Source: a virus
Direction: 5' to 3' (one strand)
IMG/VR virus record: IMGVR_UViG_3300006916_000041
Span: 108,410 to 172,409 of that record
DNA: 64,000 nt
In this document: in pieces, positions 8,051 to 58,153 of the stretch
How the letters are laid out: each line of letters opens with the position of its first letter
How positions within the stretch are numbered: the stretch's first letter is position 1
Notes under the pieces: generated by a model
The model's input: only the letters and a program-made list of their open reading frames with translations
Databases searched by the model: none
What the model was told of the DNA's origin: nothing
Translations under genes and position numbers: made by a program

Positions 8051-8314
8051 TCAGATAGTTTCTTTTAAAACATCACTGGTGGTAAAATTTAATGCTGGTC
8101 CTGCTTCTTTTTCTGCTTTCAATGTAGCATGATCAGCTTCACTTGCAAAAATTTTTACGCAACGCACACTAGTAGGACTTGCTAGAGTAATAGATCCACT
8201 AGTAACCAATGGATTAGTTGTTCCGCAATTTCCGTGTTCTGCCTTCCACTCGTTTACACTAGCATATGTATTACCACTAGTTGTTGTAAGTATATTAGTT
8301 ACTCTATATGCCAT
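8051..8314 (-). CDS. Small Thr/Ser-rich hypothetical protein
   Basis: 87 aa from ATG 8314 with AGGAG RBS; AATAAATA upstream at 8347-8354. Confidence 0.75.
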   Translation of the reverse strand: MAYRVTNILTTTSGNTYASVNEWKAEHGNCGTTNPLVTSGSITLASPTSVRCVKIFASEADHATLKAEKEAGPALNFTTSDVLKETI

Positions 8315-8352
8315 GTTGTTTTCTCCTGTCACATAATTTATAAGTGTATTTA

Positions 8353-8952
8353 TTAATAAAATCCAAATGCCCAGTATTTTTCTTTACACCACCAGCATGT
8401 TTTACAAGGTCTAGGCGCTGTTAAACTTTCACAGCTTACTGTTAAATCTGACAGTTCTTGCAACTGATGTTGTTTATATAGTTCAGCAACATAACGTTTA
8501 TCCTGGTTTATAAATGGCTGATAATGATAAATTCCGTTACGGCTCACACTGCGCCATTCTCTTGTAACATCTCTGGTTTCATCACGTCCTTCTGTTTGTA
8601 ACTCTGGAGGATTTGTTGTCATACCACTTAGTATTCCAGTAACATTATATTTTTCTACCAATTCTTTTGTTTGTTTTGCTCTTCCGCCTGCTTTTGCTGT
8701 TTCCCTGTCAGGAAGAAATCCTATACGATGCTCTATAATACGATTTGGAAAATTACTATCCAAATATTTTTTTATTTTTTCGACATTGTCTAAATTATAA
8801 TTTTGCATATGAGCGAAACAAATAGTACTCAGTACTATTTTACATTCTGGTTTATAATTCATTACTAAAAATGTAAGTAATGCACTATCTAATCCGCCAC
8901 TTAGTGTACTCAAATAAACACCTTCGTTTGGAATTAGGTCAATTTTTTCCAT
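8353..8952 (-). CDS. queC: QueC-like PP-loop ATP pyrophosphatase (7-cyano-7-deazaguanine synthase-like)
   Basis: SGGLDS PP-loop, PFINQDK, SC-x8-CKTCWWC zinc motif; actual substrate uncertain. Confidence 0.6.
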   Translation of the reverse strand: MEKIDLIPNEGVYLSTLSGGLDSALLTFLVMNYKPECKIVLSTICFAHMQNYNLDNVEKIKKYLDSNFPNRIIEHRIGFLPDRETAKAGGRAKQTKELVEKYNVTGILSGMTTNPPELQTEGRDETRDVTREWRSVSRNGIYHYQPFINQDKRYVAELYKQHQLQELSDLTVSCESLTAPRPCKTCWWCKEKYWAFGFY

Positions 8953-10067
8953 AATTCTTCTCTACTATTTTTGTTTAGTTCAGAGCAAATTTTATCCATA
9001 GTAGCACCATTAAATGAAGTAACACAATGGTCACTACCATACCCAGCAATGTCAGGATTATATTCTGCTATTGTATTGAAAAAATCTAGTGCGCCTCGAT
9101 AACTTTGTTGACTGCTTCTGAGGATATTAGCTGGTAGTCGTTTTAAAGCACCGTTCCACCAAAAAGCACCTTTGCCTGTTAAGTCTAAACCAGCAAGGGT
9201 GTTGCGTAACATTTGATTATCGCCAAAATTACACACATTATAAGTATGTTGACACTGTTGATATCTGTGCCAATGTTCTGACCATTTATCACCAAAAGTA
9301 TCTTGTACATGTTGCCAAACATTTTTAGTTGCAGGACTAAAACTACGAAGTTTATGTATTCCGTTATATACTTCTAATAGTTCAAACTTCTCATACAAAT
9401 GATCTATCCAAGCATAAAAATTGTTTCCATCCCAATTTTCGATTGTGTACTTTCTTACTCGTAAACTCATAGGACTTACATCCAAGTGATGCACATTGGT
9501 ATTGTTGTCAAACGAGCTTAAATTTAACACATAATTTATATAGAATCCACTGCTCACAGTCATTACAAAATCTAGATGTTCGTGTGTTGGTTTTGGCCTG
9601 GGTATTTCATTATGAATTACGTAAGATATATTGCTATTTGCAACAACTGAATTCATAACGCTAGTATGAGTTGCCGAAAAACTATCATCAGTGCTTGGGT
9701 CTACACACGGAAAAGACACAGGCATTTCTAGTTTCCAGTCACTTTCTCCACGAGAATTATACACAGTCACATTATCATGAAGTTTAACTACACCAACGTT
9801 TGTACTTAAAACTTTTGTTCTTAAATTGCCTTCCCAATTTGCAGACCAACGATTATAATCAAAAATAACACCAGGCTTTAACTGTACTGTAACTTCGTAT
9901 TTGCTTAAATCCACTTTTGATATATCGTCTGTAATGATAAATTCATGTCCTCGGTCTTGTTCAAATCTATCAGCCATACAATAATCGTAATTTAATTGTG
10001 TATAGTTTTTGGCTACTTGATATCTCCAAGTATCAGTACCATTGTCTAATAATACTATTGCTATCAT
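8934..10067 (-). CDS. Hypothetical protein, paralog of 21448..22719
   Basis: 377 aa; VSSG...D...ENWDGNNF shared with 21448..22719. Confidence 0.75.
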   Translation of the reverse strand: MIAIVLLDNGTDTWRYQVAKNYTQLNYDYCMADRFEQDRGHEFIITDDISKVDLSKYEVTVQLKPGVIFDYNRWSANWEGNLRTKVLSTNVGVVKLHDNVTVYNSRGESDWKLEMPVSFPCVDPSTDDSFSATHTSVMNSVVANSNISYVIHNEIPRPKPTHEHLDFVMTVSSGFYINYVLNLSSFDNNTNVHHLDVSPMSLRVRKYTIENWDGNNFYAWIDHLYEKFELLEVYNGIHKLRSFSPATKNVWQHVQDTFGDKWSEHWHRYQQCQHTYNVCNFGDNQMLRNTLAGLDLTGKGAFWWNGALKRLPANILRSSQQSYRGALDFFNTIAEYNPDIAGYGSDHCVTSFNGATMDKICSELNKNSREELWKKLT

Positions 10068-10780
10068 GTTAACCTCGGTTCAATATCTTCAAAATTATAG
10101 TATGCAAACTGTGTATCAAATGTTACATCTCTACTAGGATCCTTTTTGTAGAAAAAGTATCCTTCTAAACTCTTAATCCACTTATTGTTTTCGTCTGTTA
10201 TATTCCAGAACTCTCTCCAGTGTCTACTGGTCGCTGTATGTACGTGCAAGTCTTTTTTAAATATCCATTGTCTACAGTCTCGAAGTTCCTGTTTTATCAT
10301 TCGTTTTGCTGTCTCTTCGTCTTTGTAGTATGAATGATAGGTAGGATATGTAATATCAAAGCCGCCAGCACCAAACCATCCAGTGTAACACTGTTGTAAT
10401 GGTCTAAACACTACGATAATTTTACTGGTTGGAAAGGTTTCTGTAATCCAGTCTAATCGATTACTAATACAATGACTTTTAACAATACGGTATTGATCAT
10501 AATGAGGTTCAAACCAAGCACGATCTATCTCGTCTAGTATTTCTTGTTTGCTGCAACAACTTATATCATCCCAATAATTTCCAAATTCAAATCCCGGACC
10601 AAAGTAACTGCCCAAATGACTAGCACTGTTGAACTTTTCAGGGTGTATGTATTCACGTTCAGGACTTCTGTCATGTGTATTAATTTTTATTTTAGGAGTC
10701 ATACTAAGAACATTAGCTACTGCACTCCATTTACTTCCAGGTGCACCTGTAAGAAATATCAACTTACTTTCGTCGATCAT
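10064..10780 (-). CDS. Sulfotransferase-like/P-loop fold protein
   Basis: LIFLTGAPGSKWS N-terminal loop, IVKSH, KIIVVFRP. Confidence 0.5.
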   Translation of the reverse strand: MIDESKLIFLTGAPGSKWSAVANVLSMTPKIKINTHDRSPEREYIHPEKFNSASHLGSYFGPGFEFGNYWDDISCCSKQEILDEIDRAWFEPHYDQYRIVKSHCISNRLDWITETFPTSKIIVVFRPLQQCYTGWFGAGGFDITYPTYHSYYKDEETAKRMIKQELRDCRQWIFKKDLHVHTATSRHWREFWNITDENNKWIKSLEGYFFYKKDPSRDVTFDTQFAYYNFEDIEPRLT

Positions 10781-11570
10781 CCAAATCTCCTATAAAATTT
10801 TTCATTAAATTGTAATCTTTTTTTGTAACAGTTAAAACTCTACTGTCATTGATACAACGTCTCTTTTCCATGTTATTCGAGATACGTTCTTTTGTGTATT
10901 TAACAAAGTCTCCGGTGTTACGATTTTCCCAAACATCTTGAACTGTGAAATTTTTACCTAATTTGTCTGCTAGTTCTTGCAAAAATTGACCATGTTTTGT
11001 TTGTTCACCGTTCATCCATTGATGTTTTAAATATCCTGGAAACTTTGCACTGGTATTCATATAGCGTTCAACAGTACTTGCAACATCACTAACAATGTTT
11101 ATTATTTTACTGTTAGGAAATATTTCTAATAACTCCATTGGTAAACTGTGACTGCAAAACAACAAGTAACAGTCAAACGATTGTGCACCAGATAGCAAGT
11201 ATTGAGGAGCAAAATGTTTGGTATAATATTCGTGCCAACAAGGTACAAAATCTTTTACATAATCATGTGTAGGTGGTAGCATTACCCCGTTAGGCATAAC
11301 ACGATTGAAATGGCGTCTAGACACCTTGCGTTCTCGAATACTTGTGTGTGATATATTCCACGGATGTACACCGTTATCGCTGTTACTGTACCAATGCACT
11401 TGCGGTAATGTACACAAAACTCTACCCACGGTGTGACCAAATGCACCTGGCTCAAAACTCACAAACAAATAATTTGTACGTTCAAATACGTCCGAGAAAG
11501 TAGTACATTTCGTTTTTTTGTTCAACAATATCTCCTGTTGCAAACCAATCATCATACACACATATGTCAC
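10764..11570 (-). CDS. Hypothetical protein, possible sulfotransferase-like fold (start uncertain)
   Basis: FVSFEPGAFGH N-terminal loop, CSH, FPNSKIINI. Confidence 0.5.
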   Translation of the reverse strand: MTYVCMMIGLQQEILLNKKTKCTTFSDVFERTNYLFVSFEPGAFGHTVGRVLCTLPQVHWYSNSDNGVHPWNISHTSIRERKVSRRHFNRVMPNGVMLPPTHDYVKDFVPCWHEYYTKHFAPQYLLSGAQSFDCYLLFCSHSLPMELLEIFPNSKIINIVSDVASTVERYMNTSAKFPGYLKHQWMNGEQTKHGQFLQELADKLGKNFTVQDVWENRNTGDFVKYTKERISNNMEKRRCINDSRVLTVTKKDYNLMKNFIGDLDDRRK

Positions 11571-12165
11571 CTTTAACCCACAACTGTTTTGCTTCGATAG
11601 TTGTTTCGCACCAAGCAGTATCTCCCATAACAGTTTCGGTGAAGTTTACATGCATGCCAGGTTTAAAGGTTTTGTTAATAGCACAAGGACCTATCTCTGT
11701 CATTCCCCAATTGACAATAAATGTACAACCTTGATCAATAAAATTTTGTATTATTTTACTATCTACTCTGTCGCTACCACACATAACTGTGATGCCATTC
11801 AAATTTAATTTTTGAAAACTTTTTGTTTTAATTACAGCTCTGGCCATATCTGGTGTTAAATGACTGTGTGTATAATCTTGTATTTGTCTAGTCCAAGCAT
11901 ATGCGTTGAAAGGTTGTATTTCAATGTGTGCATCAACTTCATGTGCTGGCAGTGTTTGTGCTAGTAATCCTCCTGCATGTTTTAGTGTACACACTGTGAG
12001 TACTCTACTATTTTTATCGATTTGCTGGCATTCTCGAGCCGCACTGTTTGCAGCCCGAAGTTTTTCAACACTTTGCCAAATACGTTTAGGTTCGCCAGTT
12101 GTACCACTGGTTTGTAAAAAACAACCTTCAGTTAGTGTCTTTTTTAAAGTTTTTTTCAGTTCCAT
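11482..12165 (-). CDS. Short ANL-superfamily adenylate-forming (AMP-binding) enzyme
   Basis: QTSGTTGEPK, HAGG, NWGMTE, WFATGD, LGR; ends right after this last motif. Confidence 0.8.
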   Translation of the reverse strand: MELKKTLKKTLTEGCFLQTSGTTGEPKRIWQSVEKLRAANSAARECQQIDKNSRVLTVCTLKHAGGLLAQTLPAHEVDAHIEIQPFNAYAWTRQIQDYTHSHLTPDMARAVIKTKSFQKLNLNGITVMCGSDRVDSKIIQNFIDQGCTFIVNWGMTEIGPCAINKTFKPGMHVNFTETVMGDTAWCETTIEAKQLWVKGDICVYDDWFATGDIVEQKNEMYYFLGRI

Positions 12166-12343
12166 CTGTAATCTTTTTTGCTAGTCTATACGGTGTAAAT
12201 GCAAACACCCAAGGTACAAATGCATGTATAGTGCCAGTTATAAAAACCAACAATGCTAAAAAATTATAATACATTGCATAACCCAAGTGACGAAAATAGC
12301 CACTACGAGCCTTTTTTAAATGTTTAAGGTCAAAATCCATCAT
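12128..12343 (-). CDS. Small membrane protein, DUF6356-like
   Basis: HL-x6-YFRH...IHAFVPWVF pattern, one hydrophobic segment. Confidence 0.55.
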   Translation of the reverse strand: MMDFDLKHLKKARSGYFRHLGYAMYYNFLALLVFITGTIHAFVPWVFAFTPYRLAKKITDGTEKNFKKDTN

Positions 12344-12858
12344 AAAATCCTTTTTCTTATTTCAAAATATCTGTCTACGTTCAATCTCCATATACTTTGC
12401 CAAGTGTGAAATATTTCTGCATCGCCCATATATTCCACCATACCTCCTTTAGCCATTACACTAAAACTACGATGTATTCGATTCATTCTTCCACTGGCAT
12501 CATTACTTACATTAGTAGTTATATATAATGCATGCCCGCCAGCAAACTCTATTTGTTTAGGTAACTGTTCACTGATACAATAACTTTGCATTTGGTATCT
12601 AGTAAGACTATTTATAGGGCGAGTTTCTAACTGTGCTCCTCTGAACAAACCACGATATCCATCTTCAAACTTGTGTATGCCACTTATACTAACTAGTTTA
12701 TCGTTAACACTTGTGCCATACCAAGCACCATTTTCTAAACACCAGTCCCATTTCATTGCTTTAAGACTGCTATTATTTTTAAATCCACGATTTTCACATT
12801 CGCTTATATAATCCATAACACTGTCGTCAGGTGTATAAAGTCTTTTAGTCTGGATCAT
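12340..12858 (-). CDS. Hypothetical protein, possible GNAT fold
   Basis: 172 aa; KLVSISG...YRGLFRG...LYITTN pattern resembles an acyltransferase strand order. Confidence 0.45.
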   Translation of the reverse strand: MIQTKRLYTPDDSVMDYISECENRGFKNNSSLKAMKWDWCLENGAWYGTSVNDKLVSISGIHKFEDGYRGLFRGAQLETRPINSLTRYQMQSYCISEQLPKQIEFAGGHALYITTNVSNDASGRMNRIHRSFSVMAKGGMVEYMGDAEIFHTWQSIWRLNVDRYFEIRKRIL

Positions 12859-13669
12859 AGTCTGTCAAGTCCATTGTTTGCATCATGCTGTCTTCTAATG
12901 AATCAGTTAGCTGATCGAAAAAGTTTTCGCGATAAAGATCTACTGAGTTATCTTTCAGTAACTGATAATTAGCATCTGCATAATTTTTAAAACTGATTTT
13001 ATCTAATTCGATGTTTAAGTATTCCTCTAACTTGGCTGTATTTGCATTATATACTAAATCTGCAATATCAAAATAAGTATATCCTTCTTCCTTTTTGAAC
13101 GACAGATTGCACTGTTGTTCGTAAATTTTAAAATAGCCTTTAATATATTCTCTGAGATTAAACTGACTATTGACCATAATATTATTATAATAACATAGAT
13201 ACTTCCATTTATGAAACTTTGTTATTAATTCCGTGCGAACAGGTTCTGGCGTGTCTTTGAGTTGTTGTAATCTTTCTTTATGAGGTTCTTCAAGTATCGA
13301 GTGACTTTTATAAATCCACATAGCATAACTTAGCTTTATAATGTCTGTATTTTTGGTGTACAATCTTACTAAATTAACATCATCATTGTTAAATTCGTTA
13401 AAGTGATAAGCAGGTCTGAAGCGATGTGTAGGCAGAACCAAGTCTTTATAATTATAAAATTTGTTTAATTTATCTACTACCTCTTTTGTAATATTATTTT
13501 TTGTAACTTTAACTTCCCAGCCAAAAATATCTTTAGTCAAGCAAGGCAGTTCGTATCTGTTAACACCATTGGGCTGTAACTTGATTTTATAATAACTTTC
13601 ATTTTTGTGTATCTGAGTGGCAACAAAATCGCCACTACAGCCTTGCGGATAACTCAATATTGTAATCAT
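12845..13669 (-). CDS. Hypothetical protein, possible sulfotransferase-like fold
   Basis: ILSYPQGCSGDF loop resembling 10764..11570; LPTH. Confidence 0.5.
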   Translation of the reverse strand: MITILSYPQGCSGDFVATQIHKNESYYKIKLQPNGVNRYELPCLTKDIFGWEVKVTKNNITKEVVDKLNKFYNYKDLVLPTHRFRPAYHFNEFNNDDVNLVRLYTKNTDIIKLSYAMWIYKSHSILEEPHKERLQQLKDTPEPVRTELITKFHKWKYLCYYNNIMVNSQFNLREYIKGYFKIYEQQCNLSFKKEEGYTYFDIADLVYNANTAKLEEYLNIELDKISFKNYADANYQLLKDNSVDLYRENFFDQLTDSLEDSMMQTMDLTDYDPD

Positions 13670-13670
13670 C

Positions 13671-13683: not shown

Positions 13684-14244
13684 ATGAAAAAATCTTTACT
13701 GTTTAGTGGCGGTGTCGAAAGTACTTTACTATACTACGAATTACTAAAAAATGCAAGTGAAAACAATAGTCTAAATATATTTATTCTTGACAGAGACAAT
13801 AAGCCAATACAAAAAGCATTATCAGTTTACAACCTTATTAAAGATTCATTTGATGATACCGCAAGTACGTGTAATATTTTAGAAGTGCCTGAGGGACTTA
13901 ATAATACAAAACGAATGATGTGGGCAGTAAACGAACTAAGTACGTTATCGGATGAAATTTATTGGGGTATAAATGCATACTTTGATCACATAAAACCCAA
14001 TCAGCAAATTTTTAAAAATGTTGATGAAAAAATAAAAAGATATCCGCAACTTCGATTTCCTTATCTTAATTACACAAAAGATAAAATAATAGAAAAGTAT
14101 ATTAAATATAACATAGAATGGATACTTGAACATACGCATAGTTGTGGTTTACCCGAAAACCAACCGTGTGGTAATTGTTTTAACTGCCGAGAACGTGAAT
14201 ATGCTTATCAATTACAAGGTCTAGATTTACATAGAGGAATATAA
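13684..14244 (+). CDS. queC: Second QueC-like PP-loop protein
   Basis: FSGGVES, FPYLNYTK, HSC-x7-CGNCFNC. Confidence 0.55.
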   Translation: MKKSLLFSGGVESTLLYYELLKNASENNSLNIFILDRDNKPIQKALSVYNLIKDSFDDTASTCNILEVPEGLNNTKRMMWAVNELSTLSDEIYWGINAYFDHIKPNQQIFKNVDEKIKRYPQLRFPYLNYTKDKIIEKYIKYNIEWILEHTHSCGLPENQPCGNCFNCREREYAYQLQGLDLHRGI

Positions 14245-14774
14245 TGCTAGTACAAAATATAGGAAAATATCCAAGATATAACGAACTAAAAACTTTTGTT
14301 ATGGACTTTTATAACGAGTATGATTTACACAATAGTGGACAATATGCTCTTCAAGGAAAAGATAAACACGACGGGCAATTCTGTTGTTTACGTCAAAAGT
14401 TCGGCGGAACGTTCACAGGACATGATGATCGTACACACAGCACCCTACTAGAAATATTCGAAGGTACTGAAATTGAAACGCTGTTTAACTGGTTAAGTGA
14501 TTATACTGTTTGCAGAAGTCGGATATTTGTACTAGGACAAGGAAATAAAAGTGAGTACGGTATCCACACAGATCCAACAAAAAGATTACATGTACCTATC
14601 GTAACCAATGAAAGCTGTGGATTTAATTTTTATGATGAGAATAAAAGTTTAGTTCATACTGATTTTTTATCAGCAGACGGAAGTGTGTATATTGTAGATA
14701 CTACTGTGTTTCATAATACACAGAATACCAACAACGAAGATCGTATTCATGTTGTGTGTAGTTACTATGATTAA
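14244..14774 (+). CDS. 2OG-Fe(II) oxygenase, aspartyl/asparaginyl beta-hydroxylase-like
   Basis: HTD...RLHVPIVTN...DTTVFHNTQN...DRIHVV. Confidence 0.75.
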   Translation: MLVQNIGKYPRYNELKTFVMDFYNEYDLHNSGQYALQGKDKHDGQFCCLRQKFGGTFTGHDDRTHSTLLEIFEGTEIETLFNWLSDYTVCRSRIFVLGQGNKSEYGIHTDPTKRLHVPIVTNESCGFNFYDENKSLVHTDFLSADGSVYIVDTTVFHNTQNTNNEDRIHVVCSYYD

Positions 14775-15721
14775 GGCTTAATTTTTTTAGTTGCTATTTC
14801 AGGTACACAAGCACATTTGTTAGCAATACACGGAGCAGGGTTATCCATTAGTGCAAAGTCTGGATCTCTGATATCACCAATTGGTTTATTAATTTCTCCC
14901 CAACAACGATATACTTTGTTTTCATGAATACGTATAAAATTAACGCCTGCCCAACATGTCCAGCCTTTAAAACTTAAATAAGGATTTGCTTTTGGAGCAA
15001 GTCCGTTAAGTTCATTTGCATGTAGTGCAATTGTTTTATCACCTGCAGTAACTTCTAACTGTTTACCGCCGCCAGAAGATATCTGATATTCTCTAATAGT
15101 GTCAAGCTGATCAGATGAATACTTCATTGCTGTTTGAACAGGGTATTTGTGATTTTTTGTTGGTCGTATTCTGCGGATTGTATATGGTATATTATTTGCT
15201 TTGTAATACTCTATTGATTCGATAACACTGTCTTCGTGTTGTGCATGATACATAACTTGTACTTGCATACCTTTTTTGCCACGATGTTCATTTATAAATT
15301 TCATTTTAGGCAAAAATATTTCGTTTTTTGCATGTTCAAAATGTTGACTAAATGTTATATCGCTAAACGACGGATAGATGTCAATGTAATATTGTGCTGT
15401 TCTGGAACCATTGGTAGTTAGATCAACAGGCAAATTTTTATCTGACAGAAACTTGCAAAGTATTTCAAACTCAGGATGTACTGTAGGTTCACCACCTGTA
15501 AAGTTTATTTTTAATTTATTACCAAACTTTTCAATCATCTTACTGATAGTATCAATGGTATACTTGATATCAGTGTGCGGACTAAAGTTGTCATGATTCA
15601 TGTCATGACAATAACTGCAATCATAATTACACCTTTTACCAACAAACCATTCAACATGCAACTCTTGATTACACACGTCAGGAAATCTTTTTACTTGCGT
15701 TATTTCTTCTAACTTTATCAT
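14771..15721 (-). CDS. Radical SAM protein with C-terminal Cys cluster
   Basis: CNYDCSYC, TGGEP, TTNG; C-terminal CWAG...RC...PC...CAC. Confidence 0.9.
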   Translation of the reverse strand: MIKLEEITQVKRFPDVCNQELHVEWFVGKRCNYDCSYCHDMNHDNFSPHTDIKYTIDTISKMIEKFGNKLKINFTGGEPTVHPEFEILCKFLSDKNLPVDLTTNGSRTAQYYIDIYPSFSDITFSQHFEHAKNEIFLPKMKFINEHRGKKGMQVQVMYHAQHEDSVIESIEYYKANNIPYTIRRIRPTKNHKYPVQTAMKYSSDQLDTIREYQISSGGGKQLEVTAGDKTIALHANELNGLAPKANPYLSFKGWTCWAGVNFIRIHENKVYRCWGEINKPIGDIRDPDFALMDNPAPCIANKCACVPEIATKKIKP

Positions 15722-16386: not shown

Positions 16387-16410
16387 ATTCTCTCTCACGT
16401 TTTATGTTAA

Positions 16411-16418
16411 TATTTATA
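16411..16418 (-). promoter_or_regulatory. Late promoter TATAAATA
   Basis: Exact TATAAATA on the minus strand upstream of the nitroreductase gene. Confidence 0.55.
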
Positions 16419-16422
16419 TATT

Positions 16423-18796: not shown

Positions 18797-18801
18797 AATG
18801 A

Positions 18802-18821
18802 TATTTATTTTTTAATAAATA
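18802..18821. promoter_or_regulatory. Back-to-back divergent late promoters (AATAAATA on each strand)
   Basis: TATTTATT 18802-18809 (- strand, 5 nt before the SDR ATG) and AATAAATA 18814-18821 (+ strand). Confidence 0.55.
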
Positions 18822-51067: not shown

Positions 51068-52529
51068 TAATTAATCCATTTTTTACAGCATCAGCTTTAA
51101 CTTCATTGAAAATATCACTACCCCACTCAACCGCATTTGCTTCTATTGCATGTGGTACGTGATTTTTGTTTTCATTATCTGACAAACTCAAATACCAGTT
51201 TATCAAATCCCCCCAATCTGAAAATGCCTTTTCAAATAACTTGTTTCTTCTAATATCATATTGATTATAAAAGTTGAAAAAATCATTTTGTCTTACTTGT
51301 AGGTCACTGACTTTTTTTACACTGTGTCCTTCATTAACCTCACGAATATAACTAATTGTTCTAGTCATTCCGTCGACTTCATGAACTCCCATATATTGTT
51401 TATTTTGTTCTAACCATTTTTCATAATAGTCTGCTCTTTCGTTACGAATGTTTTCTGGAAGTGTAGTAATACTTTGAAAACTTGGAAAGCGCAAAATATT
51501 ATAACTTAAATAAATATTTTTTCCTGTTTTTTCTTTTAACTTAAATACTTCCTCGTGAAACTTATCTAAACTACCTAGACATAAAGCATTTAATGTTAGC
51601 ATAATATGAAATCCAGATAACTCTCCTTCTGTTAGCAATCTTTCCATATTAGCATACCATTCATCCCAGATTAAACCATCCCTAATATACTCTGCTTGAA
51701 TACCAAAACTTTCATTACTAGTATATATATCTAAATTTTTAATGAACTTACTACATTGTATAAGTCTATCTAGTTTATCTTTTTTTATACCTAGATTAGT
51801 ATTTACTGCTAATCTTACATCGCAATCTGGATTCTTTTCAAACCAATCTACCAATTTCCAGAAATCATTACTCACAGTAGCTTCACCGCCTGTAACCCTT
51901 AGTTCTTTTAAACTATATTGTAAATCACTTTCCCACCATTTCCAAAATGCATCAATATATGGATTTTCTTTATTTGCTGGTCCATATGGTTGTGCCCAAT
52001 TACCTTCTGTGCCAAATGCACCCCAGCCATCACTTAGTAAGTCTTGGTAAGGTCCATTTTTCTTTACATCGTGTGACCATGTTGTACTGAAACCAGCATT
52101 ACAGTAACTACAAGCAAAGTTACAGTTATTATCAAACGCTATTTCTAAGTTTATTGGATTAAAACTTTGTCTCCAGTTAGCGTCAAATGCTTCTTGAAGT
52201 TTATTATCTTCATAAATTTTACTTTTGTAAACTCTGTCACTTACTAAATTTTGATCTAAATTTTCTATCTTCCAGCAATACTCACATTCTCGAGTTTGCT
52301 TTCCTTCTTGCATTTCTTTTCTTACTAATTTTTTATAGGTAGTATTGTGCAATGCACTAGGATCTCGTTTAACTTCTTCGGGATCAATTTTATGAGGAGG
52401 CGGATGATGACAACTAGTAGTTGCGCCATGCCCTAGCCATATTGTAGCATTATACCATTTTGCTCCACAAAACGTAGCACTCTTTGTGTCTAATATATTT
52501 TTTTTATATTCTAAAGAATCACTTTTCAT
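51057..52529 (-). CDS. Radical SAM protein with N-terminal CHH-variant twitch-like domain
   Basis: FCGAKW, SCHHP, ECEYC, CNFACSYC, TGGE. Confidence 0.92.
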   Translation of the reverse strand: MKSDSLEYKKNILDTKSATFCGAKWYNATIWLGHGATTSCHHPPPHKIDPEEVKRDPSALHNTTYKKLVRKEMQEGKQTRECEYCWKIENLDQNLVSDRVYKSKIYEDNKLQEAFDANWRQSFNPINLEIAFDNNCNFACSYCNAGFSTTWSHDVKKNGPYQDLLSDGWGAFGTEGNWAQPYGPANKENPYIDAFWKWWESDLQYSLKELRVTGGEATVSNDFWKLVDWFEKNPDCDVRLAVNTNLGIKKDKLDRLIQCSKFIKNLDIYTSNESFGIQAEYIRDGLIWDEWYANMERLLTEGELSGFHIMLTLNALCLGSLDKFHEEVFKLKEKTGKNIYLSYNILRFPSFQSITTLPENIRNERADYYEKWLEQNKQYMGVHEVDGMTRTISYIREVNEGHSVKKVSDLQVRQNDFFNFYNQYDIRRNKLFEKAFSDWGDLINWYLSLSDNENKNHVPHAIEANAVEWGSDIFNEVKADAVKNGLINET

Positions 52530-54091
52530 TCAAAACTCTCTTTTGCTAACTTACAAACTTCAAAGAAATTTTTCATTTCAGGATATACTTTAAGAAAATC
52601 TGTTCCTCTGCGTTTATCCATTTCATTGATGTAATCATAAAATTTAGCTCTACCTTCTCTAATATCGTCATGCCCTTCACGCTCAGGTCTCGTTTTTTGA
52701 TTATAATAAGCACGGTGCATAACAATACGTTTTAATTTTTCAACTTCTACATTTAAAAAACCTATTTCTGTATTCCATACACTGCTAGGATTATTATCAC
52801 TCATGTATTTAATTGTCGGTAACAAATAGTTCGTAAGTAAATCTTCAGAGCAAAAATGAACATCCATCCACTCAGGCCATCTCAAATACGGAATATCTAG
52901 ACTAACTGTAATAGTGTGCGATCGATTACGTTCTCTATGAGCTATAATTTGATCCATTGTTCCGTCAGAGTTATCATATCCTGTAGCACTTAAAATAACA
53001 GTTTCACTAGTGTCATTTGGAGTATATTTTCTTTTAAGATTAAGAACCCATTCTAGCATCGGTTTAAAACTAGTAATACTTAATATATTAAATGCAGACA
53101 TTATAGAAAGTCTGATATTATCCATTTCAGCGATTTGTTCTGCACGAATCTTTAAAAGATTAAAGTTTAAACCAGTTCTAGCATATTCTGCACGTTCGCC
53201 CCAGCCTTCTAAACTAGTATAAACAGTAATTTTTTTAACAACTTCCTTATCTCTCATTTCAGTTAATAGTAAAACAAACTCGTTCCATAACTTGTCAGGA
53301 ACACTAAGATTACTGTTAATAGAAAATTCCATTTCGGTATTTGGATTTTCTATCAAGTATTTCATAGTTTTAAAAGTTTCTTTACTCATAAGCGGTTCGC
53401 CGCCTGTAATACGATAATGTTTTAAATGCTTACTAGCTTCAGGAAACCATTTCCAAAATGCATCAATGTATGGATTAAACTCTCTATTTTTAAATGTTAA
53501 TTTTTCGAGATCATGATGTGCATGTACTATTTCTTCTTCTGTACTATCTTTTAAAAGTTCAATCGGACCATGTTGTTTTAATTCTTCTACCCATTTACTA
53601 CTAAATTCAGGACCACAGTATGTGCATTTCATATTACAAACATTGCTAAAACTTACTTCTAAATAGCTTGGATATATATCTTCATCGCCAGTTAAACTAA
53701 CAATATCGTCATGATCTTCGAAAGCCCAATACTCTAAACTTTTAATAAATCTATCACTTTTACCGCCGTCATCTTCTACTCGCCAGCAGTAATCGCACTC
53801 TGCCGGACGTTCGTCACTAAGCATTTGTTTTCTAGCTTGTTTAAGATGATTTGTATTAAAAAGTGCATGAGGATTTTGTTGAATTTCATCTAAAGGAATT
53901 TTATGAGGAGCTGGATGATGACAAGCATGTGTCATACCTGTGCCTAGATGTAATGTAACTTGTTTAAATTTAGCTAAACACATCCCACATCCTGTATTGT
54001 CGAGCAGAGATTTCATATTCCAAATATTATTATCGTTGTGTTCTAGTACACCATTGGAAAATCTATTCCAATTTAAATCGTCTTTTTTCAT
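52526..54091 (-). CDS. Radical SAM protein, tandem paralog of 51057..52529
   Basis: MCLAKF, ACHHP, ECDYC, CNMKCTYC, TGGEP; GAGGA RBS favours ATG 54091. Confidence 0.92.
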   Translation of the reverse strand: MKKDDLNWNRFSNGVLEHNDNNIWNMKSLLDNTGCGMCLAKFKQVTLHLGTGMTHACHHPAPHKIPLDEIQQNPHALFNTNHLKQARKQMLSDERPAECDYCWRVEDDGGKSDRFIKSLEYWAFEDHDDIVSLTGDEDIYPSYLEVSFSNVCNMKCTYCGPEFSSKWVEELKQHGPIELLKDSTEEEIVHAHHDLEKLTFKNREFNPYIDAFWKWFPEASKHLKHYRITGGEPLMSKETFKTMKYLIENPNTEMEFSINSNLSVPDKLWNEFVLLLTEMRDKEVVKKITVYTSLEGWGERAEYARTGLNFNLLKIRAEQIAEMDNIRLSIMSAFNILSITSFKPMLEWVLNLKRKYTPNDTSETVILSATGYDNSDGTMDQIIAHRERNRSHTITVSLDIPYLRWPEWMDVHFCSEDLLTNYLLPTIKYMSDNNPSSVWNTEIGFLNVEVEKLKRIVMHRAYYNQKTRPEREGHDDIREGRAKFYDYINEMDKRRGTDFLKVYPEMKNFFEVCKLAKESFE

Positions 54092-54092
54092 A

Positions 54093-55076
54093 TTATTCCT
54101 CAACTGAATCTTTAACTTGATCTTCTCGAATTTGCGGGCCTAATCGACTGGGATTACGATATACTGTTTTCCAAAAACGACTGCCAGCTATACCGACATC
54201 AGCAATTTCTAAATCAAGTTTTCCTCTGAGATCATCTCCTAATCTCACGATTTCTTGTTTAAGTTTAGTGCTATCCCACTGCATACCTGTGCGTGGACAC
54301 AATTGATCTCCGCCTTCAAATTTAGGAGCAAGTTCTTGATTGAAATAGTTGCTGAGCCAATCAAAATCTCTAACATTTTTCCAATCCCATTCATGACGCA
54401 GTATATTAGTCATGTGACATCCAAGTCTGGCACCGTAAATAGCCCATAATCCGTTCTCAACATCTTCGCCAACTGTCATCCATACCATTAAACGTCTGTA
54501 GTTTTCTCTAAAAATTTGTTTAAGTTTCTCAGGAGGAACAACATCGCCGTTTTCTAATCCCATTTTAACACCTTCGCGGAAACCAGCTCTCCATGCTTGT
54601 AATGGGCTGCCATTATTGTATACCCAACTATACCAGTTATTCATTTGAATATACTGTATGTTCCAACAAAAGTCAACTTGTGCCCGTTTGTCTGTTGCAG
54701 GTGCAGCTTCGTGTGTACGCATACTGTTAACAACATCAACTGGCCACATTTTAATACCGCCGTTGCCATATACTAATCCGTTTACAACGTTCTTTGCTGC
54801 AAAACTAATAACATGACTGGGAGCAATTTTGTCCATGTCCAGTTCGACATTAAAGAAATCGTCGTTAACAATATTATCAGCATCTACAGTAATAAAGCGT
54901 TCAGTTTCACTCAATGCTGCCGCAGCTTTGTGTGCAGCATCGCTGCCCCAGACGCCGTGACTGCGTTTGGCCCACGGACACTTTTCTAATAGATCTGCAT
55001 AGTTTTCATCTGCGTTAGGTTCGTCATAACTGATGTATACTATGTCAAATTCGTTAATACTTACCAGATTCGACAT
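54093..55076 (-). CDS. GT-A-fold glycosyltransferase-like protein
   Basis: ISYDEP, AHKAAA, TVDAD (DxD), NGLVYGNGGIK, WRAGFRE. Confidence 0.6.
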   Translation of the reverse strand: MSNLVSINEFDIVYISYDEPNADENYADLLEKCPWAKRSHGVWGSDAAHKAAAALSETERFITVDADNIVNDDFFNVELDMDKIAPSHVISFAAKNVVNGLVYGNGGIKMWPVDVVNSMRTHEAAPATDKRAQVDFCWNIQYIQMNNWYSWVYNNGSPLQAWRAGFREGVKMGLENGDVVPPEKLKQIFRENYRRLMVWMTVGEDVENGLWAIYGARLGCHMTNILRHEWDWKNVRDFDWLSNYFNQELAPKFEGGDQLCPRTGMQWDSTKLKQEIVRLGDDLRGKLDLEIADVGIAGSRFWKTVYRNPSRLGPQIREDQVKDSVEE

Positions 55077-56070
55077 ATTCTATTTCCTCAAATTTAAAAT
55101 TTATGTTCTTGCCTTGTTCTCCCACTAATATTTTACAAGTGGCAGGATCCACTTGAGTTTGTACAATATACTCCTGATGATTTCCTATTTTATCAATGGG
55201 TATTATAATCCTATCCAACAGCTGATTGGGATTATTTCCGGTTAGATATAAACGTAAATCATTGTAGATTTTATATTCGTGTGGATTTTCAAAGTTACTG
55301 CGTATAATCCAACCCTGTGTACTAGGACTTACGCTAAAAATCGCATCATCGTCATAATCTTTATTTTGAATGTATATGTGTTTTCTCTTTTTATTGTTTC
55401 TGAGTTCATTTTCAATGAACTGATGTTTTATTTTTAATCCATAGGTTTTAAACACTCGTTTAGTATATATATCAATATCTCCGAGTTGTACTTTAGTTCT
55501 AAGTCTGCTGAGATCAAATAGTTGAGCTTTGTTTGTTACTAAATCAATGGGGTTTATTGATATTGTTTGATATAGTATATTTGGGTTATTTTTACGAGTT
55601 ATATAAAATTTTAAATCATCAAAACCGTGAGTGTTCTCAATATGTACTGCACTATTTCCTTTGTTTCCGGTAATTTTATAAAATAGCTCTTCGCTTATAT
55701 AAACTTGAATTTTATAATCACTTAGATAAGCTACAATATTAATATCTTGATCTGATGATAACGATGACTCAGATACCTTACTAAGATATTCTTCTGCTTT
55801 TTTAAGTCTTAGATAATTATCTCTCAGTACTATTTTATAACTTTGTGTTTGATAATCTTCGGCTACAACATATTTTTTAAGACTTTTAGTACCTGTCATC
55901 AAGTCTTTTACAGTTGGGTCTGTAGTTAGAAGATAAGGGTACTCTATATTGTTTTGCTTTTTACTAGCAATTGATATTATATTTCCGTGCCACTCGTCGA
56001 AATAAACATAGAAACTATGCGTAGTGTTCGAGTCTGGTTTTTCTTGAATTAAAAGTTTGTTTAAGCTCAT
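55054..56070 (-). CDS. Hypothetical protein with internal duplication
   Basis: 338 aa; LKFYITRKNNPNIL repeated as LRLYLTGNNPNQL. Confidence 0.7.
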   Translation of the reverse strand: MSLNKLLIQEKPDSNTTHSFYVYFDEWHGNIISIASKKQNNIEYPYLLTTDPTVKDLMTGTKSLKKYVVAEDYQTQSYKIVLRDNYLRLKKAEEYLSKVSESSLSSDQDINIVAYLSDYKIQVYISEELFYKITGNKGNSAVHIENTHGFDDLKFYITRKNNPNILYQTISINPIDLVTNKAQLFDLSRLRTKVQLGDIDIYTKRVFKTYGLKIKHQFIENELRNNKKRKHIYIQNKDYDDDAIFSVSPSTQGWIIRSNFENPHEYKIYNDLRLYLTGNNPNQLLDRIIIPIDKIGNHQEYIVQTQVDPATCKILVGEQGKNINFKFEEIEYVESGKY

Positions 56071-56896
56071 TGATTATTTCTTTTGTTAGGAAATTTTCAT
56101 CTCTGTAATGAACAATTCCATTGGATATAGTACTGTTTTCTATAATTATTTCTTGTTTATTTGTGTACCAATTATTCAATGAATCTGTCCAGTTATCGGA
56201 CAGATCAGTTGTCCATAAATTCTGAGAAGAAACAGACAAATCGTAAAAATTATTAATAACAACATTTGTTTCATTGTTTATATCTAAACAATGTGTAACT
56301 AAATTGCACAGTATATTTTTATCAAATGTGTCTGGCTTTATATCGTTAAAAAAGATACTGTATACTTGTCTCCAATTTTGAAAAATTGGATCAGCCATTT
56401 TAAACCAAGCTAATGCCTCGTCACTTGTGTTATAATAAAACAATTGATTATAATTTTGAGGCAATTGGTATTTTTGTTCAATTTCAAAATCAGATATTTT
56501 TTGCGTTAATCCGTTTCTAAAATTTCTAGCTATGCTGGTCATACCTATGTCGACATTTGCAAATTGATCCCAAAGTAGACCGACATCAACATTTAAGAAT
56601 AAACTATCTGCATCAACATAAATCGTTTCATCAAATGGTGTACAGTGTGCTAATTGCCAAAAGTTACTGCCATGATATCCGTCTGCATGTCCGGTATTAC
56701 CAAATGGAAGTTCAACAATATAATCAAATGCATCAAAATAATTTTTATCCACTAGATCACTTTTATCCTTGTCTACTACTAGACAAACTTCTGCTTCTGG
56801 ATCACAATTTTTAATACTCAGAGAAAGTGCATAACTGTATTTTACTCGATCCGCATCGGTATCTATACCAATTGTGATAAATCCTCGTTTACTCAT
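56015..56896 (-). CDS. Glycosyltransferase-like protein (GT-A, GT8-like)
   Basis: LSLSIK, TPFDETIYVDAD (DxD), C-terminal VHY. Confidence 0.6.
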   Translation of the reverse strand: MSKRGFITIGIDTDADRVKYSYALSLSIKNCDPEAEVCLVVDKDKSDLVDKNYFDAFDYIVELPFGNTGHADGYHGSNFWQLAHCTPFDETIYVDADSLFLNVDVGLLWDQFANVDIGMTSIARNFRNGLTQKISDFEIEQKYQLPQNYNQLFYYNTSDEALAWFKMADPIFQNWRQVYSIFFNDIKPDTFDKNILCNLVTHCLDINNETNVVINNFYDLSVSSQNLWTTDLSDNWTDSLNNWYTNKQEIIIENSTISNGIVHYRDENFLTKEIINELKQTFNSRKTRLEHYA

Positions 56897-57806
56897 AAAT
56901 TGCTTCCTGTAATTTTTTTATAATTGTCGAAGAGTGCCTACTTAATGCACGTTTGTTCATAGCATGTAGATTAGTGTCTATGTTTTTAGTTAGTATATTT
57001 TTCCACTGCTCTTTTCTGTCGTGACTGAGTAATACCCAACTGTTGATGTCTTGTATTTCTACTACATCATCTTTTTGATCCATGTTTACTAGAGGTACAC
57101 CTAAAAAATCGTGAATGAAGTTATTTTCATTGAAACCATTCATAATATGTGCAGCAATACTCACACAAAAATCAGTTCTGAACAGTGCTGGAGGAAACTG
57201 ATAAAGCAGATGATAATAGTCCCAATTGTCTTTTACATGAGTCCATAAATCAAAAAACATTTTGCTTTCTTCACTTTGATCAAAGTAAACAACTGTGCTC
57301 CACCAATGATTGACTCCGCCGTCACTTAGTGTAATTTCGTTTAAATATGGCAACTGATGCTCTAGGTAACGTGCAGTTCTATGCATTGAAACTGGGATAT
57401 CTGTATCAAATATATAATCGTAAAAATTGTTTTTAATAATATAATCAGTATCTATCAACAGTGTTTTTTCAAACGGAGTATATGAAAAAACTTGATCTTT
57501 ATTGTTGTTATAAAACGGAGCAGTAAATTCTGTCCATGGACTATCAAAATGTCTACGTGGATTGTTAACTGGTTGATCTTCAGTTATAACAACATGATCA
57601 AAGCATGCACTATGCCATTTAGAATCAACACTGTCTTTTAACCAACCGTAGGTTCCTTCATCTGTAATTAGACAAATGTTTTTGTTTTCCATGTGTGCTT
57701 TTACGTAACCAGCTGCTATGTGTGCGAATTGTACGTAATCCAACTGATCATTGTTGTAAGCAAACATGCAAATGCCTGATTCTTCTTGTTTTACACTGTC
57801 AGACAT
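56889..57806 (-). CDS. Glycosyltransferase-like protein (GT-A), paralog of 56015..56896
   Basis: ICLITD, TPFEKTLLIDTD (DxD), FRTDFCVSIA, LHAMNK. Confidence 0.6.
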   Translation of the reverse strand: MSDSVKQEESGICMFAYNNDQLDYVQFAHIAAGYVKAHMENKNICLITDEGTYGWLKDSVDSKWHSACFDHVVITEDQPVNNPRRHFDSPWTEFTAPFYNNNKDQVFSYTPFEKTLLIDTDYIIKNNFYDYIFDTDIPVSMHRTARYLEHQLPYLNEITLSDGGVNHWWSTVVYFDQSEESKMFFDLWTHVKDNWDYYHLLYQFPPALFRTDFCVSIAAHIMNGFNENNFIHDFLGVPLVNMDQKDDVVEIQDINSWVLLSHDRKEQWKNILTKNIDTNLHAMNKRALSRHSSTIIKKLQEAIYE

Positions 57807-58153
57807 TACCAATCCATTATTTGTTTTATACTACGAGCACGTTTGATTTTATCCATTTGAACTTTGTATTCATTGCTAGCCTGTTGATAAGCATCAATCA
57901 AAGTAGTTTGAAATTCTTGTAAATTTTCAATTTCGACAGGATTATCTTTGGTATCAACAACTATAGCTGATTGTTTACCATTAGTGATAAGTGCATTTAC
58001 AAACGAAATTAAAGTTTCATTAGCTAAGAAACTACCTCCTTTGTAGTGTAAATTTTGCAGTACTTGCATACGGCTTCTAATATTACGTTTTTGATTACTA
58101 AGTGTTGCACGATAATTTGCAAATTCGAGGGCTTTCTCGAGTCTCTCATCCAT
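57806..58153 (-). CDS. Hypothetical protein, possibly tail-fibre assembly chaperone-like
   Basis: 115 aa, AAGGAG RBS, helical, directly after tail genes; functional call is inference. Confidence 0.6.
   Translation of the reverse strand: MDERLEKALEFANYRATLSNQKRNIRSRMQVLQNLHYKGGSFLANETLISFVNALITNGKQSAIVVDTKDNPVEIENLQEFQTTLIDAYQQASNEYKVQMDKIKRARSIKQIMDW

Follow-up and report, generated by a model that had tools for sequence, protein, structure and literature searches.

Closest described systems

Radical-SAM-rich phage islands are already known descriptively, in a marine T4-like genome with 12 radical SAMs (PMC5332604) and in the host recognition cluster of pelagimyophages and cyanomyophages (PMC7029224). 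Like the locus described here, these are large hypervariable islands beside structural genes, with GT8 glycosyltransferases (GTs), swappable radical SAM cassettes and genome-borne Fe-S support genes (ATC, PaaD/SufT and glutaredoxin). However, they belong to a separate phage lineage, and their functions are likewise putative. Unlike them, our island has a fixed five-gene core and no fibre genes recognised inside it, and it ends at DHFR/ThyA, not at a neck gene.

The Ralstonia phage RsoM2USA (MG752970; PMC8504454) provides a lab-cultured virus with a small version of the island. Its ORFs 355-347 show the identical core gene order together with a radical SAM, a second GT and a methyltransferase, and a second locus (ORFs 199-203) contains a carbamoyltransferase and a radical SAM. 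In contrast to the present island, RsoM2USA has two twitch radical SAMs rather than 17 and no Gly-Tyr loop, and the pattern used here gives no sigma-70 match ahead of its core; all of its counterpart ORFs are annotated as hypothetical.

Mycobacteriophage virions carry glycans (cited in PMC12619734), and these phages resemble the present one in encoding soluble GT-A enzymes near structural genes. The same holds for chlorovirus PBCV-1, whose capsid GT (PDB 2p6w) matches the island GT models with Z 11.8 and 7.4. Sequence identity to these GTs is nevertheless under 20%. We know of no radical SAM array in either glycosylation system. BtrN, NeoN and HygY, which tailor sugars or aminocyclitols (PMC10991966), offer a mechanistic model, since they combine radical SAM and auxiliary-cluster (twitch) chemistry within glycoside pathways; the island enzymes, however, have a permuted domain order and no close sequence relation to any solved enzyme. 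Finally, the 5-hydroxymethylcytosine carbamoyltransferase system (PMC8670742) likewise has a two-domain carbamoyltransferase in a phage, but the island enzyme is flanked by GTs and has no dCMP hydroxymethylase beside it.

Setting and gene content of the island

The window analysed is a stretch of 64,000 nt; genes are named by their low coordinate and lie on the minus strand unless marked +. The island (8051-58153) is a gene block of ~50 kb directly 3' of the virion particle genes of a large uncultured bacterial virus, an RsoM2USA-related jumbo myophage. The phage origin assumed in an earlier note on this DNA was borne out, and a chimera with cellular DNA was ruled out, since other assemblies are 99.8-99.99% identical. 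Every gene except four runs on the same strand as the structural genes, and the majority overlap or abut.

All 17 ORFs with a CxxxCxxC motif listed by the earlier note are present at their low coordinates, and in profile searches every one matches Pfam or NCBIfam models for radical SAM enzymes. Outside the cluster, one of 142 ORFs (at least 100 aa) has the motif, located in a spurious upstream extension, which excludes chance as the source of the 17. The proposed carbamoyltransferase, nucleotidyltransferase and two QueC-like proteins have Pfam matches above cut-off, and the four DxD genes have the GT-A fold. Other assignments held in part: the adenylation enzyme has an AMP-binding Pfam match above cut-off but is a fragment of just 227 aa; two of the four 2OG-Fe(II) oxygenases exceed the Pfam cut-off, the others (20656, 32609) being weak or motif-only; the sulfotransferase-like genes match weakly (E about 0.01), as do the three methyltransferases (35965, E 2e-4; 41354, E 0.05; 30424, by Atlas features).

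The block had been read as a single pathway with no characterised counterpart known. It is instead a mosaic, with radical SAM matches numbering from 1 to about 20 in individual relatives, and is close to typical for its lineage. Comparison of these genomes shows a layered island (core, shared module and hypervariable rest) rather than one pathway.

Virion genes and the five-gene core

The upstream genes, called tail genes in the earlier note, deserve that name to differing degrees. The first encodes a very large virion structural protein, its 3' part lying at 60959..64000 (PHROG 10938, E 1e-65); the protein is 3725 aa in a longer assembly and is a homologue of RsoM2USA ORF361, detected in virions by MS (PMC8504454). 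It is followed by a structural gene with a weak PF12571 tail-collar fibre match (60337..60936), a putative tail-fibre/virion protein (59410..60324; PHROG virion structural E 6e-9, tail fibre E 4e-4), and the last putative structural gene ahead of the island (58220..59410), for which family searches including PHROG gave no match. Gene 58220 carries a variable Gly/Tyr/Ser-rich loop (about 58500-58610), found in most close relatives and absent from RsoM2USA ORF355 and several radical-SAM-rich relatives. On the opposite flank, DHFR and a canonical thymidylate synthase with Asn at the specificity position (5835..7996, +) converge on the island; in some relatives this pair is inserted 3' of the 54093 homologue.

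The core consists of a 115-aa conserved protein (57806..58153), a GT8-like GT of the glycogenin/Gat1/LgtC fold (56889..57806), its divergent GT8-like paralogue (56015..56896), a fast-evolving protein (55054..56070) and a GT-A (GT2-like) glycosyltransferase (54093..55076). Its order is kept in 77/77 viral loci whose 54093 ORF is intact, to the extent that the contigs cover it, a count that allows single insertions or unrecognised divergent genes, and also in a complete 363-kb genome and in RsoM2USA. Linkage to structural genes in relatives is tight, and the core is fixed behind the baseplate/fibre genes.

The predicted model of 56889 (pLDDT 91.7) matches glycogenin (Z 15.1, rmsd 4.0, 214 aligned), tied with Gat1, GlyE, UGGT and LARGE1 and also with the lipooligosaccharide enzyme LgtC (Z 14.0); WbbM is among the GT8 fold matches as well. 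Its DxD (119-121) is invariant (40/40). The paralogue 56015 aligns with it at an HHalign value of 98.9%, and its profile matches only glycogenins in the PDB (E 3.5e-4); DxD is present in 23/40, the second Asp not being conserved. Gene 54093, the most conserved gene, has about 8000 homologues, keeps DxD in 60/60 and gives a predicted model (pLDDT 85) with a fold match of Z 10.4 (rmsd 3.0, 138 aligned). Hydrophobic segments were found in none of the four GTs, and neither a flippase nor a polymerase was found in the island.

Radical SAM genes

Seven of the 17 radical SAMs pass the cut-off of NCBIfam NF033640 (N_Twi_rSAM), which has its twitch domain at the N-terminus, and 11 have a Cys cluster N-terminal to CxxxCxxC. 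The other six differ from this family: three are short C-terminal-twitch enzymes, two are viperin/MoaA-like with a weak score, and one is B12-binding (25895..27367; PF02310 and PF04055), a putative methylase whose B12-binding nature the earlier note had not recorded. N-terminal-twitch members include 24555 (24555..25898; NF033640, 373 bits) and 52526 (52526..54103; 306.7 bits), the type most often retained in minimal cassettes (RsoM2USA ORF349). No solved enzyme in the PDB is closely related in sequence (best E about 0.008, for 16423 and 28751), and RiPP maturase models score far below cut-off. Gene 23409 (23409..24562) encodes 384 aa when intact; in the present assembly it reads 24562-23552, with one base missing near 23593. 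Five other assemblies have this base and the intact gene, and the apparent frameshift is private to the present assembly.

A variable sub-island of low GC (39414..52529, 29.6%) contains radical SAMs 51057, 49961, 47876, 46686, 45472, 43251, 42109 and 39414, with sulfotransferase-like 49179, methyltransferase-like 41354, and unassigned 44353 and 40502. Read-contig depth (run X11) was 20-65 over the core and under 5 over this segment.

Shared module and accessory cassettes

A second GT-A glycosyltransferase (31595..32388), paralogous to 54093 (31%) and with DxD in 26/26, has as constant partner a class I SAM-dependent methyltransferase-like gene (30424..31608; Atlas features 0.98). Small genes 30213 and 29833 and radical SAMs 28751 and 27345 occupy 27345..30437. 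The latter two are shared with Bdellovibrionota at 41-46% and 59-62%, respectively, and 19491 and 16423 at 60-67%. The GT-A pair, the methyltransferase and three radical SAM types form a module that also occurs on Bdellovibrionota chromosomes. In two Bdellovibrionota the 31595 GT is fused to radical SAMs, the fusions being of two different types (L222, L264), and the bacterial module copies have canonical GT2 neighbours, which ties the radical SAMs to glycan chemistry. Among 301 Bdellovibrionota genomes the GT-A pair was found in 19 and the GT8-like gene in none; the GT8 pair therefore travels with virion genes.

Genes beyond core and module are hypervariable, swapped in and out. A sugar nucleotidyltransferase (38704; PF12804/PF00483) and a small phosphodiesterase-like gene known by motif only (38291) form a pair (38291..39399) conserved at 91-93%. 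Next to it lies the NodU/CmcH-type O-carbamoyltransferase (36807..38294; PF02543 and PF16861), whose best cultured match is RsoM2USA ORF199 (47%); in many relatives its gene immediately precedes the 31595 GT. A methyltransferase-like gene (35965..36703; PF13489) precedes an inserted cassette found in few relatives (32386..35864), with TctA permease 34401 (PF01970, 284 bits), secreted TctC-like 33329 (by eye only), oxygenase-like 32609 and DUF6552 (32386). Mixed-strand segments follow: 20656..23420, with Asp/Asn beta-hydroxylase-like oxygenase 22743 (+, PF05118), unassigned 21448 and oxygenase-like 20656; 15748..20687, with radical SAMs 19491 and 16423, nitroreductases 18842 (+) and 15748, SDR-like 18227 and MTA/SAH-type nucleosidase 17673; and 13684..15721, with radical SAM 14771, QueC-like 13684 (+) and hydroxylase 14244 (+). 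The TctA/TctC-like pair, the nitroreductases, the nucleosidase and the SDR were missing from the earlier note. The terminal cassette (8051..13669) holds 12845, 12340, a DUF6356 gene, the truncated adenylation domain 11482, sulfotransferase-like 10764 and 10064, 8934, QueC-like 8353 and small gene 8051. Relative G001 has the 12340-11482-10764-10064-8051 set elsewhere, and its twitch radical SAMs are scattered far from tail genes.

Elsewhere in the genome are genes for SAM synthetase, ferredoxin, ferredoxin reductase and an Fe-S carrier; SAM synthetase is present in two radical-SAM-rich genomes and absent from two complete radical-SAM-poor ones. Beside the polymerase lies a distinct set of 7-deazaguanine genes that has a GT of its own.

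Promoters

The core operon has a dual promoter (58182..58211), of sigma-70 type (TTGACA-18-TATAGT) with TAAATA in the spacer (58196). In relatives, sigma-70 is kept in 65/76 (0.7 expected), TAAATA in 56/76 (14.5 expected) and both in 47. Sigma-70 promoters, which the earlier note did not mention, also precede 35965 (TTGACA at 36703) and 31595 (32368, with TAAATA at 32388), so its description of the island as late-expressed fails for these three units. As a positive control for the late motif, 60337 has a late-only promoter (TAAATA at 60961), with TAAATA in 55/55 homologues and sigma-70 in 0/55. The proposed TAAATA promoters find no support in overall enrichment (33 vs 32 on the two strands) but do in position: TAAATA stands at 10/21 unit starts against 3.8 expected (p=0.002), including most units within 15748..20687 and the plus-strand 13684/14244 unit (TAAATA at 13673).

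Possible functions of the island

Most likely, the island builds and chemically edits a sugar decoration. This glycan part of the earlier interpretation agrees with the GT folds, and tailoring is the likeliest chemistry given the GT-radical SAM fusions in bacteria. We infer that the acceptors are virion proteins, and our tentative reading, which we put at a little below even, is that the GT8-fold enzymes attach to them a glycan tailored by the radical SAMs and other enzymes. NDP-sugars would come from the nucleotidyltransferase and from host pools; radical SAMs may dehydrogenate, epimerise, deoxygenate or C-methylate the sugars or growing glycan, which the SDR, oxygenases and carbamoyl-, methyl- and sulfotransferases may also modify; the GT-A pair would assemble the glycan, and the phage-specific GT8-fold pair, acting in the cytoplasm, would link it to Ser/Thr/Tyr of virion proteins. 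Sigma-70 promoters would start expression early and TAAATA promoters would keep it going late, the nucleosidase would clear the inhibitory by-products 5'-deoxyadenosine and SAH, and the support genes elsewhere may carry the load. The variable part would give every strain a different surface chemistry, and the accessory cassettes need not all serve one product.

Virion glycosylation is suggested by the fold matches to glycogenin, Gat1, GlyE, UGGT and LARGE1, the position of the core by virion genes, soluble GTs in an island that has neither flippase nor polymerase, the positioning of late promoters at unit starts, and the support genes, with SAM synthetase tracking radical-SAM-rich genomes in the four compared. 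Mycobacteriophage virion glycans, the PBCV-1 capsid GT and the sugar-acting BtrN, NeoN and HygY are precedents. Against it, the LgtC match is tied, the conserved sigma-70 promoter suits early functions equally well, and the shared module works in bacteria producing no virion. Further, the 58220 loop is missing in core-keeping genomes, some with many radical SAMs; G001 scatters its twitch radical SAMs; the RsoM2USA carbamoyltransferase/radical SAM locus is about 90 kb away; and the 64-kb window contains no set of sugar epimerase/dehydratase genes that would complete an NDP-sugar route.

The sigma-70 promoter conserved on the core, the LgtC and WbbM matches and the bacterial copies among GT2 envelope genes would also suit enzymes that act from the cytoplasmic side during infection to alter a glycan of the host surface (LPS O-chain, capsule or glycolipid), excluding other phages or grazers; the tail-gene link would then be co-inheritance of receptor choice and receptor masking. 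This reading has been put forward, as a guess, for islands of pelagimyophages and cyanophages (PMC7029224, PMC7824862). We consider it unlikely, though with a real chance: the island has no membrane GT, flippase or polymerase, exclusion would need earlier expression than late promoters give, a search of 301 Bdellovibrionota genomes did not find the GT8 pair, and marine phages share the core with a soil Ralstonia phage, although their host glycans are presumably unrelated.

There is a smaller chance that the products of the whole island, or of its accessory part, are small molecules, diffusible or nucleotide-linked and with no macromolecular acceptor, such as modified sugars or aminocyclitol-like or cofactor-like compounds, for counter-defence or host metabolism. 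Similar cyanophage clusters are so read (PMC7824862), the cassettes move independently, and the adenylation fragment, nitroreductases, QueC-like amidotransferases, TctA/TctC-like transporter and oxygenases are atypical of protein glycosylation. However, there is no scaffold synthase or carrier protein, and fixation of four GTs behind structural genes across the lineage would be left unexplained.

Hypermodification of phage DNA or RNA with glycosylated or carbamoylated bases is disfavoured and looks doubtful. In its favour, 5-hydroxymethyl bases can be substrates of phage GTs and carbamoyltransferases (PMC8670742), an early promoter is present, and DHFR/ThyA lie next to the island in this phage and some relatives. 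Yet the contig has a single thymidylate synthase homologue, which is of the canonical type with Asn, bearing in mind that the contig is about 48% complete and a missing hydroxymethylase could lie outside. The carbamoyltransferase is GT-flanked, as in the unmodified contigs of PMC8670742, the 7-deazaguanine set has its own GT, and the island GTs are of GT-A fold and linked to structural genes.

SPASM/twitch enzymes frequently act on peptides, and the 58220 loop is adjacent, hypervariable and aromatic-rich, but sugar-independent, RiPP-style cross-linking or editing of this loop or of other virion proteins by the radical SAMs seems very improbable, given RiPP maturase scores far below cut-off, genomes with 6-14 radical SAM matches but no loop (L174, L183, L200), and bacterial orthologues fused to GTs.

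Setting and integrity of the island

The window is the terminal part of a viral contig that is linear, 172,409 bp long and about 48% complete; outside the window, the contig carries phage genes of the ribonucleotide reductase, polymerase and chaperone types. Complete relatives measure 344-363 kb, and among cultured phages, the Ralstonia jumbo phage RsoM2USA (MG752970) alone matched the core glycosyltransferases (GTs). Nine loci from other assemblies showed 99.8-99.99% identity to the window with identical gene order. Therefore, we ruled out a chimera or assembly artefact. We also ruled out that 23409 (genes are named by the low coordinate of their ORF) is a pseudogene: a one-base loss near 23593 is private to this assembly, and the gene is intact elsewhere. 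Contigs of this phage lineage were found in bacterial MAGs of unrelated taxa (L210-L214, L216, L217 and L219), and such binning can fake a cellular distribution.

A fixed glycosyltransferase core next to virion-side genes

The gene order 60959-60337-59410-58220-57806-56889-56015-55054-54093, in which four virion-side genes precede the five core genes, was kept in 20/20 loci found with 56889, and the order from 60959 to 54093 in each of the 77 informative loci that the search with 54093 yielded; both counts apply within contig reach and allow single insertions or unrecognised divergent genes. The order was intact in a complete 363-kb genome and kept in RsoM2USA, but without a match to 60337 there; ORF356 and ORF357 of that phage were ruled out as its counterpart. 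The linkage to structural genes on which the earlier note had built its reading thus holds in relatives. The RsoM2USA homologue of 60959 is a virion protein by mass spectrometry (PMC8504454).

The predicted structure of 56889 is confident, and its closest folds are GT8-type enzymes. The matches were glycogenin (Z 15.1, rmsd 4.0, 214 aligned), Gat1 (15.0) and GlyE (14.9), followed by UGGT (14.8), LARGE1 (14.6) and LgtC (14.0), and the GT24 and GT49 domains tie with GT8 in this search. The profile of its paralogue 56015 matched glycogenins alone (E 3.5e-4). A DxD motif is conserved in 40/40 homologues of 56889 and in 23/40 of 56015. As single sequences, neither matched a GT Pfam model at E 0.05, and an HMM search with 56889 found no family. 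The predicted model of 54093 is a GT-A domain (Z 10.4-9.1 over residues 4-155), a fold that nucleotidyltransferases match too, at Z 8-9. DxD is invariant in the GT2-like 54093 and the second GT-A gene, 31595; no Pfam match to the PF00535 clan was found for either. On these predicted models, the matches show glycosyltransferase folds for these genes, and the acceptor stays outside their reach.

We had presumed that 57806 resembles a tail-fibre chaperone; this candidate was rejected, with no Pfam support in 38 homologues, nor with PF16778. When 57806 was modelled in complex with 56889 and 58220, the score was 0.19, which speaks neither for nor against contact. For 58220, no fold or family was found. 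Its loop of Gly-Tyr repeats (58500-58610) has Gly-Gly-Tyr repeats in other clades or is acidic and Tyr-rich there, and distant relatives lack it. In one clade (L052, L053, L055, L056, L058, L060, L079 and L083-L085), DHFR and ThyA sit directly after the 54093 homologue, within the core operon.

Radical SAM genes and their support set

The earlier note had listed 17 radical SAM ORFs with CxxxCxxC motifs; all 17 were correctly placed and match Pfam or NCBIfam models. Seven of them (24555, 27345, 46686, 47876, 49961, 51057 and 52526) reach the 170-bit cut-off of NF033640 (N_Twi_rSAM), a large catalogued family without a measured reaction. Below the cut-off are 45472 (131 bits), the truncated 23409 (128), 19491 (119) and 39414 (60), and the other six genes miss it too. 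A Cys cluster lies N-terminal to the radical SAM motif in 11/17, and 25895 is a B12-binding radical SAM. Against RiPP maturase models, no radical SAM gene reached any family cut-off. Paralogues in the window share 20-33% identity, with a single pair at 43%; therefore, we regard them as old families and not as a recent tandem expansion.

A support set for these enzymes is also encoded on the full source contig (G000:C1:36467-38157, 83834-84538 and 103975-105063): SAM synthetase, SufT, an A-type Fe-S carrier, a ferredoxin and a ferredoxin-reductase-like protein. In a small sample, two genomes rich in radical SAMs carried SAM synthetase, and the two complete genomes poor in them lacked it. This gene content suggests that the radical SAM enzymes are both active and costly.

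Variable part of the island

The number of NF033640 matches per relative was 1 (the complete genome G005), 2 (RsoM2USA), 3, 9, 10, 15 or about 20, and minimal cassettes consist of four GTs and one radical SAM. Seventeen radical SAM genes are a high number for the lineage, yet not exceptional. Cassettes of the island relocate: in the relative G001, the terminal cassette and radical SAMs sit at other places in the genome, and a second locus of RsoM2USA pairs a carbamoyltransferase with a radical SAM. Across the fetched loci, orthologues above 45% were lacking for most accessory genes. The 39.4-52.5 kb stretch has a GC content of 29.6%, versus 38.6% for the remainder of the genome, and in one run the summed contig depth falls sharply beyond 54093.

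As for the other enzymes named in the earlier note, the carbamoyltransferase, the nucleotidyltransferase and two hydroxylases are firm, while the sulfotransferases, the methyltransferases and two oxygenases are weak or motif-only. The QueC-like genes score 17.7 and 23.6 bits with TIGR00364, the model of QueC (7-cyano-7-deazaguanine synthase), far under its 150-bit cut-off. Further genes emerged beyond that list, namely TctA, a TctC-like protein, two nitroreductases, an MTA/SAH-type nucleosidase and an SDR. The TctA permease and the secreted TctC-like protein (33329-35864) occur in few relatives.

The products of 44353-45420 and 40502-41353 have paired His/Glu motifs, possibly of a di-iron family, and such proteins repeatedly lie next to radical SAM genes in phages, as well as at one Bdellovibrionota locus (L263); no fold was found for either, and neither fold nor family for 44353 or 33329. 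The products of 8934-10067 and 21448-22719, which we take to resemble SAM-dependent aminocarboxypropyl transferases, are weakly related to each other (E 0.003). The methyltransferase-like 30424 gave a weak nicotianamine-synthase lead in Atlas (0.86), and a PDB search with it returned no fold or family match. Two short minus-strand ORFs, 36706-36822 (38 aa, overlapping the end of the carbamoyltransferase gene) and 17528-17713 (61 aa), have no Pfam match.

A related module in Bdellovibrionota

The 54093/31595 GT pair was present in 19/301 Bdellovibrionota genomes, several times on megabase contigs, accompanied by the 30424 methyltransferase and by orthologues of the radical SAMs 27345 (59-62%), 16423 (60-67%) and 28751 (41-46%). 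SDR, QueC-like and B12 genes join the module in some loci, one bacterial copy has three tandem QueC-like homologues, and canonical GT2s are among its neighbours. Moreover, two loci carry GT fusions, with a 27345-type radical SAM in L222 and a 28751-type in L264. From this linkage and these fusions, we conclude that radical SAMs and sugar transfer are coupled. A search of the 301 genomes did not find the GT8-like gene; therefore, it is the GT8 pair that accompanies the virion genes. A free tree nests the phage clades among bacterial rows, and a single bacterial clade was not rejected by the AU test (p 0.43), so we claim no donor between phages and Bdellovibrionota. Glycosylation of Bdellovibrio fibres was rejected; the paper reports GlcNAc binding.

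Promoters and timing

The raw TAAATA count was rejected as late-promoter evidence, being strand-symmetric. Upstream of 60337, TAAATA was found in 55/55 homologues and a sigma-70 site in 0/55, which marks TAAATA as a true late motif of this lineage, judged by its conservation. TAAATA precedes 10 of the 21 island unit starts, compared with 3.8 expected (p=0.002). The core promoter of relatives contains sigma-70 sites in 65/76 (0.7 expected), TAAATA in 56/76 and both in 47. Within the window, sigma-70 sites lie at 58211 (core), 36703 (35965) and 32368 (31595), the latter two resembling the sites before the early genes (1294-2979). Thus, the late promoters claimed in the earlier note stand at unit starts, but exclusively late expression does not, since three units have sigma-70 sites. 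Judging from the dual core promoter and the sites at 35965 and 31595, the island is probably transcribed from early on into the late phase, which weakens the argument from timing. RNA runs yielded patchy low-depth contigs over structural and island genes alike and were uninformative on expression or timing.

Proposed function of the island

We favor virion glycosylation with radical tailoring as the best, still putative, mechanism, at somewhat less than an even chance. A broader version, which we consider rather unlikely, is a lineage-wide protein-glycosylation system in which glycogenin-like enzymes would prime baseplate or fibre proteins on Tyr/Ser, and a domain-permuted radical SAM array, open to expansion, would rewrite the sugars into a strain-specific virion glycan code; predatory bacteria would have their envelope decorated by the same putative radical chemistry.

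Some cassettes would suit a small-molecule role. The island may instead remodel the host surface, but it holds no membrane glycosylation genes: no membrane GT, flippase or polymerase (GtrABX or Wzx/Wzy type) was found in it, and its hydrophobic products are only TctA, one signal peptide and two small DUFs. Direct editing of the Gly-Tyr loop of 58220 by the radical SAMs is attractive, but the presence of the loop follows neither the core nor the radical SAM count, leaving the loop unsupported as an obligatory substrate. Modification of phage DNA is disfavoured, as the single ThyA is canonical and 29 kb from the carbamoyltransferase with no adjacent dCMP hydroxymethylase (in a contig 48% complete), the carbamoyltransferase is GT-flanked as in unmodified contigs (PMC8670742), and the 7-deazaguanine genes form a set of their own near the polymerase. 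The TET/JBP oxygenase model PF12851 had no match anywhere, with controls likewise silent.

Relation to described phage islands

In 2017, a T4-like genome of marine origin was described that combines 12 radical SAM genes with Fe-S support genes (PMC5332604), followed in 2020 by pelagimyophage hypervariable islands with GTs and radical SAMs beside tail genes (PMC7029224); a review of jumbo phages takes up cyanophage tailoring clusters (PMC7824862). The functions are putative throughout. The pelagimyophage host recognition cluster is likewise a hypervariable island of GT and radical SAM cassettes adjoining structural genes. However, that cluster lies between VrlC and the neck gene gp14, with tail fibres, whereas the present island ends at DHFR/ThyA and early genes, with no fibre gene recognised inside. 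Moraphages (PMC12619734) have four core GT orthogroups, a count that coincides with the four GTs here. In the literature searched, we found no paper on the five-gene core, whose RsoM2USA genes are annotated 'hypothetical', and no report joining radical SAM, GT and sulfotransferase with a phage virion.

Taken together, the island is real, large and biochemically unexplored, and is one of many members of a kind already described. The window represents one large member of a class recurring in hundreds of contigs, and in aquatic metagenomes homologues of the core GT number in the thousands. Should virion glycosylation with radical tailoring hold true, a widespread lineage of jumbo phages would be added to those that glycosylate their virions, and the radical sugar chemistry involved would be new. 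RsoM2USA, culturable and with a minimal cassette, makes the question testable, and compact three-enzyme versions in bacterial chromosomes, some GT-fused, offer a further short route.

Other observations in the phage genomes

The 7-deazaguanine-type set beside the polymerase (G000:C1:87730-105063, outside the window; L108 and L109) comprises a DpdA-like gene, FolE, QueE-like and QueD-like genes, a GT-B and a dehydrogenase. No QueC was seen in this run, and PF01702 did not match the DpdA-like gene, whose motif was seen by eye. A glycosylated deazaguanine is possible. In RsoM2USA, a second, divergent thymidylate synthase homologue (MG752970, 7739-8398; L001 region) lies beside a deaminase, far from the GT core, and is a candidate base-modifying gene. 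Finally, a gene run at G000:C1:69898-80517 has similar short N-terminal leaders ending in Glu, resembling capsid-targeted internal proteins, and in G001, twitch radical SAM genes lie among genes with such leaders.
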